From NCBI GenBank assembly GCA_964248365.1, contig CAXTYC010000064.1:1-12354 (forward strand): 12,354 nucleotides of DNA, written 5' to 3'. The notes below the pieces were generated by a model. The model saw only the letters and a list, made by a program, of their open reading frames with translations, had not been told where the DNA came from and ran no database searches. Positions 1,904 through 12,354 of the stretch are shown in pieces. The stretch's first letter is position 1, and the number at the start of each line of letters is the position of its first letter. The translations under genes were made by a program, and so were the position numbers. The stretch is from an uncultured Chroococcidiopsis sp. Its GTDB lineage: Bacteria; Cyanobacteriota; Cyanobacteriia; Cyanobacteriales; Chroococcidiopsidaceae.

Positions 1904-3115
1904 ATGCGTCCTCGTCAAGGCATTATTGAAGTCTTTTCGACTTTTCTGCAATTTGATGCTGATCGTTTCAGTGCTTGGGCAACTGAACCACGACTGCGGC
2001 GGAGTATGCAAGTAAATTTGACTCGAACGGGGATCGTAGAGTCTAGAGAAGAATTTTGGGTTCTCTATTGGTACAAGCTGTGGCAAACCCAGCCAAATAG
2101 TTTGGCACAATCCCATCTGTGCGCTTACTTGCAAGAAGTGTGCTACTGGGCGGCACACAAAACAAATGCTAGCTTTTCCTCTACCCAGTACACTTTATCT
2201 GACTGCTTCATGATGGCGATCGCACGGTTGGATAAAGTATTGAAAGGCTTTAATCCCCAGCTTGGCTACGGTTTCAAAAATTATGCAACCGTAATTTTCA
2301 CCAGTGTCCTTAAAGATATCCTGCGCCAGCATCAGGAAGTTGATATTTGTACTAACTGGTCGTTATTACGCAAGATCAGCCAAAAACGCTTAGTCGAATC
2401 TTTGCAAAATGTTGGTTTGAATACCGAAGCAATTGCTTGTTACGTGCTTGCTTGGAATTGTTTCAAAACTGTTTATGTCCCAAATCATCCTACTGGTACT
2501 CGTCAACTCCCTAAACCTGATGCTGCTACTTGGGAAGCGATCGCCCAATTATACAACCAACAGCGGCTGGTTCAACTGCCATCTACCCAACAATGCAATG
2601 CTCAAACCCTAGAAAAATGGCTGGGCGCTTGTGCGAAAGCAGCGCGTTCTTATCTATATCCGACTTTTATATCGATCAATACTCCTAAACCAGGACAAGA
2701 ATCAGGCGAATTTTTAGACGATGTAACCGAATTCACTCAAGAAACATTTCTTAATGAAATTATTGCCGCCGAAGAAGAGCAAAGCAAACATCTACAGCAA
2801 GATCAGCTTAAAGCCGAGCTAGCAGAGGCTTTGGCGGGGCTAGATCCCCAGGCACAGAAGATCGTGCAGCTTTACTACGGGCAAGGACTCACGCAACAGC
2901 AAATAGCCCAAAATCTCGATATCAAGCAGTATACCGTTTCTCGGCGGTTAACAAAATCTAGAGAAATTTTGCTGACTTCTCTTGCTCGTTGGAGTGGTGA
3001 GACACTGCATATTTCATTAACTTCAGAAGTACTTAGCTATATAAATACCGTTCTGGAGGAATGGTTAAAAGTCTACTATGACCATCCCTGCCCTCGCTTG
3101 GAGTCTTCCCCATGA
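1904..3115 (+). CDS. Sigma-70-family-like regulator (cyanobacterial long form with C-terminal region-4 HTH)
   Basis: 403 aa. Region-2-like segment (AHLxAYLQE-type ... GFNPQLGYGFKNYA...LKDILRQ) and region-4 HTH LDPQAQKIVQLYYGQGLTQQQIAQNLDIKQYTVSRRL. Confidence 0.85.
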   Translation: MRPRQGIIEVFSTFLQFDADRFSAWATEPRLRRSMQVNLTRTGIVESREEFWVLYWYKLWQTQPNSLAQSHLCAYLQEVCYWAAHKTNASFSSTQYTLSDCFMMAIARLDKVLKGFNPQLGYGFKNYATVIFTSVLKDILRQHQEVDICTNWSLLRKISQKRLVESLQNVGLNTEAIACYVLAWNCFKTVYVPNHPTGTRQLPKPDAATWEAIAQLYNQQRLVQLPSTQQCNAQTLEKWLGACAKAARSYLYPTFISINTPKPGQESGEFLDDVTEFTQETFLNEIIAAEEEQSKHLQQDQLKAELAEALAGLDPQAQKIVQLYYGQGLTQQQIAQNLDIKQYTVSRRLTKSREILLTSLARWSGETLHISLTSEVLSYINTVLEEWLKVYYDHPCPRLESSP

Positions 3116-4275
3116 CTTTTGATCCTGCCTTGCTTCCCACCGCTGATTCGACTCACTTGTGCTTAGATTTGTCCGAAACAGATATAACCCAGGCTTGGCA
3201 GCGCAGCCAGTCTTTTTCTAGCAATAGTTGTTGCTGGAATGCTTATCTCAATTCTATTTGCCTCAATAGTGTTCTGGGCTGGCTACGAGAGGAGTGCGCA
3301 CCCCAAGCTAATGTTTGGTTAAGTGCTACTTTGCCAAGCATTTGGGAGGTGGTTAATGGATCAGCTATTACCCTAGACAGAACCCGATTTGTTTTAGTTC
3401 CCACCGAGGCGATTGATTTAAGTGAGCTGCGAGTGCCGCAAGAATGGGTAGATATTCCAAGCTGGGCAGGAGATTATTATCTGGGAGTGCAAGTTAATCC
3501 AGATGAAGGGTTGGTAAGAATCTGGGGATACACAACGAATCAGCAGCTAAAACAAAAAGGTAGCTACGATCCGCAAGATCGTACATATAGCTTGGATGAA
3601 AATGATTTAATTCAAGATATCAGTGTTTTGTGGGTGGCACGTCAACTTGGTCTAGAAGAACGAACTAAAAGCCATATATCAGCCCTACTTAGTATACCAT
3701 TAGCACAGGCACAAAACTTAATAGCCCGTTTGGGTAATCCAGATGTAATTAATCCTCGGCTAGCCCTCCCGTTCGAGTTGTGGGGAGCTATTCTAGAGCA
3801 TGGCGGCTGGAGACAAAGGCTGTACCAGAGCCGTATGGGACATTCAGAGCAGTGGTCAATTTTACAATGGCTCCAAAGTGGAGTATCAGAAGCGGCAAAA
3901 CAGATCGGTTGGGGACAAGCAGAATGGCAGCTAGCAGGAGGGAAAGGAACAACAATTCCATCAGTAGATTTTTTGTCTCGCTCTTTGGCGATCGCAGGTC
4001 AAAATTATGAGTTGCGGGTGATTCCCAAAGGTGATGCTAATGAGAGAATTTGGCGGTTTGAGCTTATAAATGCCAATAGGGGCGATCGCATTCCAGGCGG
4101 ATTTAAACTGCGACTACTAACTGAGGATTTGCAAGCTTTTGAAGGCAACGAAGACGTAGCTATAAATGCCCAAGAGCATTTATTTGTTGACGTAGTTCTT
4201 GCACCTGGCGAAGGCTTGGTATGGGAAGTAGAACCGATGCCAGACAACTGCGATCGTGAGATCCTGCGATTTTAA
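3112..4275 (+). CDS. DUF1822 family protein
   Basis: WNAYLN, LxxIWEVVNGSAI, ELRVPQEWVDIPSWAGDYYLGVQV...IWGYTT motifs. ATGA overlap with the stop of the sigma-like gene. Confidence 0.88.
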   Translation: MTFDPALLPTADSTHLCLDLSETDITQAWQRSQSFSSNSCCWNAYLNSICLNSVLGWLREECAPQANVWLSATLPSIWEVVNGSAITLDRTRFVLVPTEAIDLSELRVPQEWVDIPSWAGDYYLGVQVNPDEGLVRIWGYTTNQQLKQKGSYDPQDRTYSLDENDLIQDISVLWVARQLGLEERTKSHISALLSIPLAQAQNLIARLGNPDVINPRLALPFELWGAILEHGGWRQRLYQSRMGHSEQWSILQWLQSGVSEAAKQIGWGQAEWQLAGGKGTTIPSVDFLSRSLAIAGQNYELRVIPKGDANERIWRFELINANRGDRIPGGFKLRLLTEDLQAFEGNEDVAINAQEHLFVDVVLAPGEGLVWEVEPMPDNCDREILRF

Positions 4276-4327
4276 CTAAAGAATTCTCATTAAGACAGCA
4301 GTTCTTGAGCTTGATCGCTAAAATCGT

Positions 4328-4398
4328 CACACCAAAAAGCTACGACACCAACAAACTAAACACTTCTTTCCTTTTGTGTCTTTGCGACTTTGCGTGAC
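4328..4398. terminator. Degenerate inverted repeat between convergent genes (CTTTGCG-type cyanobacterial dispersed repeat); possible bidirectional terminator
   Basis: TCACACCAAAAAGCTACGACAC on the left and TTTGTGTCTTTGCGACTTTGCGTGA on the right; pairing is imperfect. Confidence 0.4.
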
Positions 4399-4424
4399 AA
4401 TAATCCAAAATCCACCCATCAAAA

Positions 4425-8654: not shown

Positions 8655-8694
8655 AACTTTATACTTTTGACATAACGCAAGCTTATACTTCCCC

Positions 8695-8913
8695 TGGAAA
8701 AAACGACTTAAAAATACAGCCAGCCCTCTTCACAAAAACTCTCCCACGCGCCCGATAAATCCTAATACAGGGAAAAAGGAGACTTTAAAAATAGTGCGGT
8801 CCGTCAAACCAGATACCCTAGAAGACCAACAGATAAGCCAATACACAAACCGCACTATTTTTATGCGTCAGGTGTAAGGCTGGCTGTATTTTTAGAGTTA
8901 CATCGGATTCCCC
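8695..8913. mobile_element. Hairpin mini-element (copy 1, outer) in the rtcB upstream region, containing nested copy 2
   Basis: Flanked by direct repeat TTCCCC (8689-8694, 8908-8913). Arms TAAAAATACAGCCAGCC (8709-8725) and GGCTGGCTGTATTTTTA (8878-8894). Right flank GAGTTACATCGGATTCCC recurs at 12180-12197. Mobility is inferred. Confidence 0.65.
8773..8879. mobile_element. Hairpin mini-element (copy 2) nested in copy 1
   Basis: GG-N13-TAAAAATAGTGCGGT (8786-8800), 48-nt loop, ACCGCACTATTTTTA (8849-8863)-N14-GG. Perfect 15-bp stem. Confidence 0.65.
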
Positions 8914-8950
8914 AGGAGGATGCAAGCTTAACTTACACCAGTTCATTCCT

Positions 8951-8989
8951 TTATAATACTTTTATAATACATTATAATACAAAATGCAA
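8951..8989 (-). promoter_or_regulatory. Candidate sigma-70 promoter for rtcB overlapped by three direct repeats
   Basis: Minus strand TTGCAT (8984-8989)-N17-TATAAA (8961-8966). TTATAATAC at 8951, 8962 and 8972. Confidence 0.5.
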
Positions 8990-9199
8990 GAGCAGTCTGA
9001 GCGGGTTTTACCAACAAAAATCAGTGCATGGTATGAGCAGGATTTGGGCGCAGTGTATTACAATTTGTTAAGAAGATAACTCTTCGGGCGATCGCTTGTA
9101 AAAAGCGATGCTCTCACTTGTTATGGATTATATAGGTTAAATTTATAGTTGCAATTGAATGGCTGAAATTGTTTACACAGCAAAATCTGACCAATCTTT

Positions 9200-9227
9200 A
9201 AATCTAAAATCTAAAATCTAAAATCTA
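9200..9227. repeat. STRR-type heptamer tandem repeat (AAATCTA)x4
   Basis: Four exact copies seen directly. Confidence 0.85.
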
Positions 9228-9245
9228 AAATTGTTTTAAACTCCT

Positions 9246-10121
9246 ATGGCACGTCAAGACACGATTTGGGAACAATTCTTATCCCCCATTGTTCGCTTCT
9301 TCATCAATGAAGAGGAGCTAAAGCGTTATGCTGACAGTATTGATTGGCAAAAAGAAGGCGATCGCTTTCGACGAGCAGATGTAACAATTCCCGCCTACTA
9401 CAGTAGTCAAAACTTTCATGGCATTGAGAAGGGATATCTCAATCCTGGTGCAGCAGTTACCTACGATCCTATTACTGGGTATGTCCTGCCACCCAACGAA
9501 ATGCAAGTTCGTCAAGGCTTGATTGATCGTATTCGAGTTAAGCCCCGCCGGATTTTAGACTTAGGCTGTGGTACAGGTTCCACCACATTGATGTTAAAGC
9601 AGGCTTTTCCTCAAGCCCAAGTGATTGGCTTAGATTTGTCGCCCTATATGTTAGTCAGGGCTGAAGACAAAGCTAAAACAGCCCAGTTAGACATCGAGTG
9701 GCGACATGGTAATGCTGAAAAAACTGGATTCCCAGCAGAAAGTTTTGACTTAATAACGATTTCCTTGTTATTTCACGAAACCCCACCAGCAGTTACCCAA
9801 TCAATTTTAAATGAATGTTTCCGGCTGCTTAGAGTTGGCGGCGAAGTGTTAATTTTAGATGGCAACCAAAAAACACTGCGCCATCTAGATTGGCTGAATA
9901 ATATTTTTGAGGAACCGTATATTCGGGACTTTGCAGCAGGGAGTTTAGATGCGTGGATGGGTAAAGCGGGGTTTGAAGCGGTGCAAACTGATGATTTATG
10001 GTTAATACATCAAGTGACGAGGGGTGTTAAACCCCTGAAAGAGGAATCAGTTGTTCCACGTCCCACGTCAGGTGAAAATGCTGTTCATTCTGACTGTTGG
10101 ATTCTAGCTCCTGAATTCTAA
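9246..10121 (+). CDS. Class I SAM-dependent methyltransferase
   Basis: ILDLGCGTG motif I, IGLDLSPYML, SFDL...LLFHE, LLRVGG. Confidence 0.93.
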   Translation: MARQDTIWEQFLSPIVRFFINEEELKRYADSIDWQKEGDRFRRADVTIPAYYSSQNFHGIEKGYLNPGAAVTYDPITGYVLPPNEMQVRQGLIDRIRVKPRRILDLGCGTGSTTLMLKQAFPQAQVIGLDLSPYMLVRAEDKAKTAQLDIEWRHGNAEKTGFPAESFDLITISLLFHETPPAVTQSILNECFRLLRVGGEVLILDGNQKTLRHLDWLNNIFEEPYIRDFAAGSLDAWMGKAGFEAVQTDDLWLIHQVTRGVKPLKEESVVPRPTSGENAVHSDCWILAPEF

Positions 10122-10135
10122 GGTAACATATAGGC

Positions 10136-10864
10136 ATGACTTTAAAAGCAGTTTTATTTGATTTCAACGGTGTTATTATTAATGATGAGCCGCTCCATGA
10201 GAAGTTAATTGAGCAAATATTAATTGAGGAAAACCTACGCCCAATAGCAGGAGAGTTTCGACAGGTTTGTCTGGGTAGAAGCGATCGCGTTTGTTTAACC
10301 GAGTTACTGGGGCGACGGGGTAGAGTTGTCAGCGAAAGTTATTTAACACACTTGATGAAACGTAAGGCATTGGCGTATCAGCAACAACTGGAAAAAATAG
10401 AGAAATTACCACTTTACCCTGGTTTGTCAGACTTGATATATCAGATGCGTAAGCGTAATCTAAAACTAGCCCTCGTCAGTGGGGCAATGCGAAGTGAGAT
10501 AGAATCGGTCTTGAATCGGGCTTCTTTAGCACCAAACTTTCCTGTAATTGTTGCTGGAGATGACATAACTACCAGTAAACCCCTTCCTGATGGTTATCTC
10601 TTAGCAGTCCAACGCTTGAATCAGCAAGATCCCCATTTGCAACTGCAACCAGATGAGTGTTTAGCGATCGAAGATACTCCCGCTGGCATACAAGCGGCTA
10701 AACGAGCTGGAATATCAGTGGTTGGAGTGGCAAATACCTACCCTTTTCATATGATGCAACGACAAGCTAACTGGGCTGTAGATTATCTTTGCGATCTAGA
10801 TTTGCAATGGGTACAACAGGTATTTTCCCAGGCAAACCCTCAGCCTGTTGTTACTGAGTGTTAA
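10136..10864 (+). CDS. HAD family phosphatase/hydrolase
   Basis: LFDFNGVIIND motif I, LVSG motif II, SKP.PD.Y and IEDTPAGIQAAK motifs III/IV. Confidence 0.92.
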   Translation: MTLKAVLFDFNGVIINDEPLHEKLIEQILIEENLRPIAGEFRQVCLGRSDRVCLTELLGRRGRVVSESYLTHLMKRKALAYQQQLEKIEKLPLYPGLSDLIYQMRKRNLKLALVSGAMRSEIESVLNRASLAPNFPVIVAGDDITTSKPLPDGYLLAVQRLNQQDPHLQLQPDECLAIEDTPAGIQAAKRAGISVVGVANTYPFHMMQRQANWAVDYLCDLDLQWVQQVFSQANPQPVVTEC

Positions 10865-10929
10865 AATAACTAATAGCGATTTGATTGGTTGCAATTCATA
10901 GTTCACCCTTTATCCTTCATCCGTATTAA

Positions 10930-11002
10930 GGGGAATTAGCTCAGTTGGTAGAGCGCTGCGATCGCACCGCAGAGGTCAGGGATTCGAGTTCCCTATTCTC
11001 CA
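10930..11002 (+). tRNA. tRNA-Ala(CGC)
   Basis: Acceptor GGGGAAT/ATTCTCC with G3:U70 and discriminator A. D arm GCTCAGTTGGTAGAGC. Anticodon arm CTGCG-ATCGCAC-CGCAG. T arm AGGGA-TTCGAGT-TCCCT. No encoded CCA. Confidence 0.97.
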
Positions 11003-11004
11003 TT

Positions 11005-11160
11005 TGTCATTAAATAATTATTGTCAGTTTTAAAGAATTCTTGTCCAATTTGAGCAGATTAAGGGACACAAGTGACGTATTTTCCTGACTTTCAGCAATT
11101 TTCTCGGTTTTAAAGAATTCTTGTCCAGAGTTGAAACTCTTTTTAAAGAATTCTTGTCCA
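11005..11160 (+). mobile_element. Tn7-like (type V-K CAST-type) transposon end with four TnsB-binding-site repeats; element extends to the right
   Basis: TGT at 11005, then TAAATAATTATTGTC (11011-11025) and three exact copies of TTTTAAAGAATTCTTGTCCA (11028, 11108, 11141). Starts 2 nt after the tRNA. Confidence 0.85.
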
Positions 11161-11335
11161 AAACTACATAACAAAACTTAATTAGATTAGATATATGGAA
11201 TCTAGAAGATTACAGCAAGCCCAAGGCTCTTTATTTATAAATTTATTAAGTAGTTTTACACTATAGCTGAATTTCTCTTGCTTTGCGGCTTTCACTGGGG
11301 CAAAAGCTCCACTACTTAAAAATAGCTGCTTCTTA

Positions 11336-11367
11336 CGGTGCGATCGCAGCACTCCTTTCAAACCACC
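11336..11367 (-). CRISPR. Delocalized single repeat-spacer (homing crRNA) of type V-K CAST targeting the adjacent tRNA-Ala
   Basis: Minus strand GGTGGTTTGAAAG (11367-11355; cf. V-K repeat 3' end GGTGGGTTGAAAG) followed by GAGTGCTGCGATCGCACCG, 18/19 identical to tRNA 10951-10969, which is preceded by GTA (GTN PAM). Confidence 0.9.
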
Positions 11368-11681
11368 CTAAGTATTACAGTTGTAGATTGTTAAGAATAA
11401 GATGAGATCGCTTTTGATAGTGGTAGTACTGTGCCCATGCTTGATGTTCGCGTCGCCATCACGACTCTTGCAAAACTAGCTCAATTCTCCAAACTGCTGG
11501 AAACAGTAATTTGCACAACCACTGTCGCATTTCTGGCACGCAAAGCGCGGATAATAGACCTCGTGCCGCTTTGAATGATGCCATTGGACGAGGCGGTACT
11601 AGAGGATTGGTTGTTTGGTTTTTTTGGGTATTGATGATTGGCTCAACGTGATAGCAGGAACTCTTAAATAAATGTCAGACC

Positions 11682-11830
11682 AGAGAGGAAACTTTAAAAA
11701 TGAAGGCAACCTTGTGTTGAGTTATCTGTGAGCGTCTAGGGCGATTTATATTGAAGGTTGCCTTCATGCGCGACGTTTGAGGGGGAAGCTTCCCCCTCAA
11801 AGCTCGCTTTTTTATGCGTCATTTGTTACC
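11682..11830. mobile_element. Hairpin mini-element (copy 3), loop inverted relative to copy 2, right arm interrupted by a palindrome
   Basis: CC-N13-TAAAAATGAAGGCAACCTT ... AAGGTTGCCTTCAT [insert] TTTTTTA-N14-CC. Flanks are 10/13 and 11/14 identical to those of copy 2. Confidence 0.6.
11768..11807. repeat. Small palindromic insertion (dispersed-repeat-like)
   Basis: Perfect 26-nt palindrome TTTGAGGGGGAAGCTTCCCCCTCAAA (11776-11801), flanked by GCGA/TCGC. Confidence 0.7.
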
Positions 11831-11867
11831 CGTCAACACCAGACAACCCATACTACACAACAGATCC

Positions 11868-12197
11868 AGGGTTTTCCGTCTTAAAAATAGAGCTTGGAAT
11901 TGGCAACAAAAAAATAAATCCGGCTTCAAACAACACAAATAACTCATCCTACCAACAAACTACTCAAAAAAGCCTGATTTATTTTTTCTAGCTTTACCTC
12001 CCGTGCCGTCAAAATCGATCCCCTGTAATACTGACAGCTAACCCAATACACGGTATCCGATATATCCCCTAAAAATGAAGACAGCCTTCAAAAACGATTC
12101 CTCGTTACACCAACAGATCACCCTAATACAGAGACCGCTTCATTTTTAGAAGAAGAAACTGTGGCTGGCTCTATTTTTAGAGGTACATCGGATTCCC
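11868..12197. mobile_element. Hairpin mini-element (copy 4, outer) containing nested copies 5 (~11909-11987) and 6 (12054-12164)
   Basis: CC-N14-TAAAAATAGAGC (11882-11893) and GCTCTATTTTTA (12168-12179)-GAGGTACATCGGATT-CCC. Inner stems 11909-11926/11970-11987 (17/18 paired) and 12069-12080/12138-12149 (12 bp perfect). Confidence 0.62.
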
Positions 12198-12218
12198 ACC
12201 AATACACGGAAAACATTG

Positions 12219-12354
12219 GTTGGGTCGAAGGGGGCTATTATGCCCCGCAGCTCCCATGCGCGAATTGGACGTGCAAGTTTCCCCGCATCCATCTCCCGAT
12301 GTTCTAATACCAAGTTGCGGTCTAAGAAGATATGCTTAGATGAGGAAAAAAAGT
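12219..12354 (-). mobile_element. Group II intron 3' end (domains V and VI), probably degenerate; continues beyond the window
   Basis: Minus strand GAGATGGATGCGGGGAAACTTGCACGTCCAATTC (12295-12262), a 34-nt domain V with GAAA loop and AC bulge. Then a domain VI hairpin ending CGACCCAAC, with A at -7 from an AC terminus. Confidence 0.85.

Follow-up and report, generated by a model that had tools for sequence, protein, structure and literature searches.

The DNA analysed here (the window; 12,354 nucleotides of contig CAXTYC010000064.1, C64 in our numbering, from an uncultured Chroococcidiopsis sp.) belongs to a 5.58-Mb cyanobacterial assembly in which 5,556 HIP1 octamers were counted. An earlier note on this DNA had described a conserved, strand-skewed loop motif of about 46 nt carried by hairpins. 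[quoted passage not shown] A unit is non-coding, spans about 105-115 bp and reads arm, inverted repeat, loop of about 43 nt, inverted repeat, arm. The outer arms measure 13-17 nt and the inverted repeats 16-18 bp, usually with an A-run at the start and CC at the end; the length of the hairpin is constant at 77-83 nt although stem and arm sequences differ. The seven units of the window and the features that interrupt them are:

8695..8909, plus strand: GG/CC-lineage unit on the outside of nest 1, with its loop from 8726 and inverted repeats at 8710-8725 and 8878-8893; duplication CC at 8693-8694 and 8910-8911
8773..8877, plus strand: inner unit of nest 1, in the stem of the outer unit at GG (8771-8772 and 8878-8879); hairpin 8786-8863, loop quoted earlier 8801-8846
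11652 (approximate)..12217, plus strand: outermost unit of nest 2, with an arm of the TA-lineage type; loop split into 11832-11867 and 12198-12208, right stem interrupted by a group II intron; E 0.002 in collapsed form
11682..11829, minus strand: unit at CC 11680-11681/11830-11831; its loop is read on the minus strand, within hairpin 11695-11772
11770..11807, no strand: unrelated short palindrome in the stem of the preceding unit, which scores E 1e-13 once 11768-11807 is excised
11868..12195, plus strand: unit of the GG/CC lineage with loop 12006-12051; CC at 11866-11867 and 12196-12197
11895..12002 (approximate), plus strand: unit with arms of another lineage, inserted into the preceding unit's left stem; hairpin 11909-11987
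12054..12162, plus strand: unit at GG 12052-12053/12163-12164; hairpin 12070-12148, loop quoted earlier 12085-12130
12219..12297, minus strand: group II intron domains 5-6 (Rfam RF00029, 43.7 bits), with the 3' end inside the right stem of the outermost nest 2 unit

CC or GG is repeated at each of the five junction pairs checked (8693/8910, 8771/8878, 11680/11830, 11866/12196 and 12052/12163). The empty site for the unit at 12054..12162 is a paralogue at C27:63637, and a genome of the same genus lacks the nest 1 unit at the orthologous site, where the exact junction is ambiguous. Loose ends of environmental contigs were seen at 11866 in one run and at 12198 in two, as expected of copies at other loci. 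The four loops quoted in the earlier note were located and oriented correctly, and its near-gapless alignment is borne out by agreement at 26-35 of 46 positions with zero gaps. The copy that it had called split is genuine, with halves at 11832-11867 and 12198-12217, as collapsing the nested inserts regenerates a scoring unit; its two degenerate copies (~8726 and ~11925) are rescued in the same manner. Units restored by excision of inserts score E 1e-13, 4e-12, 7e-4 and 2e-3. With a covariance model of the full hairpin, four window units reach 57.8-70.5 bits and a partial unit at 12004-12055 reaches 29.3 bits, four of these five being training sequences of that model.

The motif itself has to be redrawn. 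The strict consensus proposed earlier matches just two sites in the whole genome, and the true conservation of the family is looser: the conserved alignment columns are T19, GAT 27-29, AA 56-57 and ACA 59-61. The described strand skew holds for the loop, where A+C makes up 69% (2105 of 3057 nt) and G 10%. CCK at the start of the quoted motif and NGG at its end belong to the innermost stem pairs and not to the loop. The echo of GAT-N-CC in the flank of the element is present in one arm type and absent from the other lineages, which keep the GAT block.

Genome-wide profile searches yielded 59 loop matches and 104 hairpin matches on 46 contigs, compared to 0 in a reversed-genome control, and the covariance model (trained on 40 copies) recovered 102 copies in the own genome. 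Relatives have a patchy distribution among other cyanobacteria. The same model found 15, 31, 2 and 1 copies in four of 27 further genomes from this family and, under stricter filters, matches in three of 150 genomes of the order. A strict whole-hairpin pattern had no match in 400 other cyanobacterial genomes and an arm pattern none in 40 relatives; these patterns are insensitive, because the covariance model found copies in four genomes of the 40-relative set (G003, G005, G014 and G021). A sister lineage exists in what we call Nostocaceae, the family to which a named Nostocales genome belongs; of 301 genomes drawn from it, 31 have the one end pattern searched. This lineage also resides on plasmids of Nostoc, Tolypothrix and Fischerella (nine plasmid records), and plasmid searches with own-genome lineages returned either no match or two chance matches in Bacillus. 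A collection of genome contigs gave 11 pattern matches, seven from genuine members (five in named cyanobacteria, two in a bin) and four by chance, and a pattern search of metagenomes gave 12, some of them chance. No match was obtained in the viral contigs searched or with the A-arm pattern across metagenomes. Sister-lineage loops are homologous to own-genome loops (identity 0.60 vs 0.43 when shuffled; 22 of 31 beat every shuffle), and homologous loops are present in different cyanobacterial families.

Copies of this family are dispersed, have empty counterpart sites, duplicate their target, nest within one another and carry the loop either way round. Copies of the Nostocaceae lineage, which have GG...CC ends, carry a perfect 3-bp duplication in 38 of 46 parsed cases, a count that takes the best of lengths 100-107 and whose misses include truncated copies. 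The duplications are of nine kinds, namely TAA (15) and TTA (13; 28 together) plus ATA, CAA, TTT, TGT, CTA, TAT and TAC, preceded by C in 16 of the 38 and followed by G in 23. Copies with identical loops bear different 3-bp repeats; therefore, the repeat derives from the target, and varied 3-bp target duplications are a signature of DDE-type MITEs. In the TA lineage of the own genome, the 14 parsed copies comprise 11 with TA/TA, one with GA/GA and two with TA/TT, and an empty site was found at C37:332. Paralogous empty sites demonstrate duplication of TA and of GG. The GG lineage has GG at both ends in all 16 parsed copies, GG having been a requirement of the parser; on inspection by eye, four copies become AG/AG once the register is shifted, and a few show AG/GG mismatches. 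A fourth own-genome lineage appears, if weakly, to repeat 1 bp, and in genome G014 there are lineages of the TA, TNA and G-run types, the A-run being absent from some of them. Overall, the units are short, non-coding and dispersed in multiple copies, with duplications and empty sites as read in all arm lineages but two. A TWA/TNA duplication of 3 bp as in IS5/PIF-Harbinger was found in the Nostocaceae and G014 lineages and not in the GG lineage of the window. The perfect inverted repeat is subterminal, and the outer 13-17 nt agree only in part. Unusually, one loop is common to lineages that differ in their ends and in their duplications (TA, GG, TNA and probably 1 bp). Units disrupt genes of insertion sequences (IS), introns and integrases, in both orientations. 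Derivatives at C26:49115 and C50:19012-19063 keep both outer arms and have lost the loop or the entire hairpin.

The recurrence of GG would also suit an IS607-type serine recombinase with a 2-bp GG core, in which case the apparent duplications would be cores. Such an enzyme could account for the GG or CC at all checked junction pairs of the window, for the G-run targets in G014, for target flanks that resemble the element junction and for a tandem pair of units at C40:44265 that have a single GG in common. We nevertheless consider it improbable. Near-identical Nostocaceae copies have differing 3-bp duplications, and the three resolvase matches in our searches all lie away from units. In addition, IS607 is without terminal inverted repeats or duplications in the available part of its description (PMC6188088), whereas the units have subterminal inverted repeats and duplications.

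The stems are mirror images to a high degree. Stem cells are paired in 91.9%, and changes in 40 copies are two-sided in 194 cases and one-sided in 9, counts that are inflated by relatedness among the copies. Wobble pairs are nearly absent, which favours mirror symmetry at the DNA level over a wobble-tolerant RNA helix. Every lineage tallied has copies with the loop in either orientation, namely four lineages of the own genome (8/3, 7/4, 6/3 and 5/5) and the Nostocaceae lineage (34/12). An identical 76-nt hairpin is inverted between two contigs of one metagenome that are 91.7% alike over 863 nt, with an assembly artefact as a residual explanation, and one identical loop was found between stems merely 40% alike. 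According to the accessible portions of two papers (PMC8604942; background also in PMC5941160), template switching homogenises arms and inverts spacers. In the hairpin of the units, the same process may keep the stems mirrored, rewrite them and flip the loop.

Mean identity amounts to 0.49 in the loop and 0.40 in the stem, with composition baselines near 0.30. Even among copies with unrelated stems, loop identity is 0.46 compared to 0.30 expected from composition, and between own-genome lineages it is 0.40-0.50 compared to a null of 0.35. Rate variation across loop columns is supported (Bayesian information criterion 4499 vs 4522, a gain of 23): some columns are slow, and the fastest columns still have 68% A+C on a tree of ~16 substitutions per site. 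Judged against common ancestry, which the earlier note had named as the explanation to beat, the loop passes in part. Slow columns and a persistent skew speak for constraint, but the gap between loop and stem rates is small and ancestry explains much. It is conceivable, although on balance unlikely, that the loop is functionless and inherited and seems conserved as template switching rewrites the stems faster, which would be compatible with a MITE. The loop and stem identities, the small rate gap and the rarity of the strict consensus are in line with this, while the slow columns, the lasting skew, a tightly kept length and homologous loops across cyanobacterial families are not. We conclude that the loop is partly under selection; a functional loop that is contacted by a protein or deliberately unstructured is plausible. 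The inner 43 nt fold no better than base-shuffled copies on either strand (mean z -0.1 to 0.2; 72 sequences). A direct repeat of ~21 nt occurs within some loops and is weak family-wide (0.31 vs ~0.27), and an extended G-U helix on the opposite strand found no support.

The alternation of fixed and variable blocks had led to the suggestion that the loop is a guide similar to a bridge-RNA or seekRNA loop, in which variable bases would specify target or donor. Subterminal inverted repeats with asymmetric extensions and a hairpin of ~80 nt do resemble IS1111/IS110 ends and the size range of seekRNA in the part of the source available (PMC11187229). However, loops match their own targets no better than permuted ones, neither in the own genome (8.26 vs 8.29, p 0.57; 23 end-placed copies of 77 full-length) nor in the Nostocaceae lineage (7.61 vs 7.64, p 0.64; 38 copies), the score being a crude one that takes the longest match of the loop to its own target halves. 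The same loop also occupies unrelated targets, and loops are 83% alike in TNA and G-run lineages, whose duplications were read by eye. A search of the window with Rfam 15 gave five matches at E<=1, none over the loop of a unit, and a search of the own genome alone for PF01548, the IS110 transposase domain, gave none, multi-copy IS being absent from that assembly. As far as the same source goes, what defines a seekRNA system is a specific target and matches to both of its strands, duplication seems uncharacteristic of such systems, and their extensions measure 7 and 3 nt (PMC11187229). The units have extensions of 13-17 nt, duplications and no fixed target. With nine different 3-bp duplications, no loop-target match and no DEDD transposase in their own assembly, the units are unlike IS110/IS1111. 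A guide acting in cis is largely refuted and the loop does not select the landing site; the guide reading as a whole is therefore very unlikely.

Our preferred explanation, which we hold to be reasonably probable, is that the loop is a conserved internal module of a MITE-like, non-autonomous family moved by a DDE transposase, with the loop as spacer or enhancer. Enzyme class and loop role are what we infer here from the analysis. The transposase would act in trans, binding the subterminal inverted repeats, would cut ~29-33 nt outside the inner CC/GG and would insert with a stagger of 1-3 bp. By analogy with PHIS/IS5 elements, it would most likely come from an IS5/PIF-Harbinger-related clade for the TNA lineages and, for the TA lineage, either from that clade or from IS630. 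The unit itself would function as DNA. The loop, with its fixed length, low G content on one strand and absence of target choice, may act in cis, regardless of its orientation, as a spacer or enhancer through which two ends separated by only ~45 nt can meet.

Several observations weigh against this explanation, in addition to the choice of the best length in the count of 3-bp duplications. No transposase bearing unit ends was found in the assembly, which drops multi-copy IS, or in the carrier genomes searched, so the duplication signatures are the sole basis for the enzyme class. The outer 13-17 nt are not mutual inverted repeats, and duplications differ in length between lineages, an atypical pattern for a single DDE enzyme. 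Targets of the GG lineage often resemble the element junction and some ends are AG/GG, which fits a core-crossover recombinase too. Mean rates of 1.09 for the loop and 1.28 for the variable stem represent modest conservation, and with so small a gap common ancestry could explain much of it. A symmetric double-stranded mechanism leaves the lasting strand skew unexplained. Finally, the spacer inversions described in the available part of the template-switching work span 2-5 bp, much shorter than the 43-nt loop (PMC8604942).

Candidate partner enzymes were rejected one after another. None of the 15 tyrosine recombinase matches was found with unit ends, and a unit at C12:6164 disrupts one of them. 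TnpB (four matches) and IS630 (21 matches) are without unit ends, and IS30 was absent from all five genomes searched. ISAzo13 was found in four of seven genomes but not in the own genome (G000), G679 or G569. DDE_Tnp_4 occurs in four of five genomes at 14 loci, with unlike ends wherever ends could be located, and the own-genome IS5 copies differ from the units where ends were found. Two of five Y1 transposase matches have units ~600 nt away on one side only, and two long RAYT-like ones have none nearby. Likewise, no partner emerged from long repeat pairs around open reading frames (ORFs), contig-end repeats among those listed, lone arms or the recurrent neighbours of units (reverse transcriptase, IS5, IS1, RecT, IS66 and IS701).

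Some of these elements are associated with units in other ways. A 1.5-kb inverted-repeat pair at C41:32086-33618, tried as a candidate, is an IS630 that inserted into a unit, and about four IS630-type ends lie within or beside units (C22:81594, C24:75278, C41:32356 and C41:35159). The IS630-type end family (27 ends) has a subterminal motif resembling the CAACAGAT block of the loop, and 29 of 72 loops carry it; this may reflect a shared binding site or a safe-haven effect. At C12:4600-8500, two tyrosine recombinase genes accompany a DUF6262 gene in what we take to be a Tn554-like arrangement, and a unit interrupts the second recombinase. An identical unit is located inside two RecT-family ORFs of G014 (L272:4454-4531 and L269:8384-8461).

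Group II introns are associated with units as well. In the own genome, four of 16 intron 3' ends fall within units (window 12218-12219, C68:8331, C5:881 and C40:45364), for which the Poisson P is about 9e-5 under the assumption of a genome that is 20% non-coding. Three of these ends, plus one in another genome (L174 ~1600), are located within the stem's A/T-run, and an additional C comes after them on the strand of the intron.

A folded single strand, of DNA or derived from RNA, could be the moving form, with an enzyme that would recognise the hairpin together with its open, G-poor loop and place its cut a set distance away, which leaves the ends free to drift. The fixed hairpin length despite variable stems and arms, lineages without an A-run, the skew retained in fast columns, the identical loop in dissimilar stems and the intron ends within units would all be in agreement with this. 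Still, it appears unlikely: the duplications are target-derived, and we know of no single-strand HUH or integron enzyme that makes such duplications. Moreover, the Y1 transposases are not flanked by units and the loop flips relative to the arms. Similarly doubtful is the notion of an undescribed mini-transposon class whose handle is the shape of the hairpin instead of an end sequence. An enzyme family would grip a fixed-length hairpin with a G-poor loop and make a measured cut, giving lineages with 1-, 2- and 3-bp duplications and TA, TNA or G-run preference, with the loop as an invertible module swapped between lineages at the CC/GG boundary.

With attC sites, the units share a hairpin shape that outlasts sequence, strand skew and targeting by introns and IS. 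They differ from attC in not forming cassette arrays, in having no link to an integrase and in duplicating their target. The REP/REPIN-RAYT system has the same likenesses, but a common GTAG tag is missing from the units (GTAG is found in one arm type only) and so is an adjacent Y1 transposase, as judged from the available part of PMC3733652. Prokaryotic MITEs such as Correia, RUP, ERIC, Nezha, Muzha and MaeMITE are, in the accessible part of one account (PMC3184786), equally short, non-coding and multi-copy, with hairpins, duplications and empty or filled sites; another review on the topic, likewise available in part, is PMC10969869. Unlike those MITEs, the units have freely varying subterminal repeats, asymmetric arms, several duplication types per core and a flipping loop; for Nezha, Muzha and MaeMITE (listed sizes mostly 127-435 bp) this comparison is by description and not by sequence (PMC3184786), and identity with one of these three is conceivable. 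A further likeness is to PHIS transposons (PIF/Harbinger, ISL2EU and NuwaII) and IS5, for which the part of PMC4482050 available describes duplications of 0, 2 and 3 bp, including TWA and TNA with C before and G after. Two unit lineages show this TWA/TNA duplication and context, and the range of 0 to 3 bp within the clade is like that of the unit lineages. On the other hand, no matching transposase was found, and that part of the source mentions neither GG nor G-run lineages (PMC4482050). We found no account of the unit family in the literature, our search having reached few subscription papers and not the original papers on cyanobacterial MITEs or small dispersed repeats.

Further features lie near units or in the window. 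A tie of the units to the adjacent rtcB was rejected because units are dispersed over the genome, and a search for sigma-70 sites inside the nest 1 units found none. Three 27-nt direct repeats at 11021-11160 of the window, right after tRNA-Ala(CGC), are possibly an integration scar, and a stretch of ~200 nt at 11368-11575 with many 67-68%-identical copies in G003 is probably another mobile-element remnant. A 2.2-kb region between long perfect inverted repeats (C42:23678-25937) is unrelated to units. The unit at L040:2501-2578 is located ~80 nt upstream of a 580-aa ORF (2660-4399) without Pfam or NCBIfam match, presumably a replication-initiator-type protein.

The units define a MITE-like family of cyanobacteria that terminal-repeat tools would probably miss, because the stems differ from copy to copy. 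One core under different ends and duplication lengths represents a natural series on transposase cut sites and target choice, and mirrored stems together with a flipping loop offer a clean system in which to study bacterial template switching. Should the enzyme read shape and not end sequence, the family would represent transposition chemistry of a new kind that needs only very small ends; otherwise, this would be an ordinary but unusually diverse MITE family.

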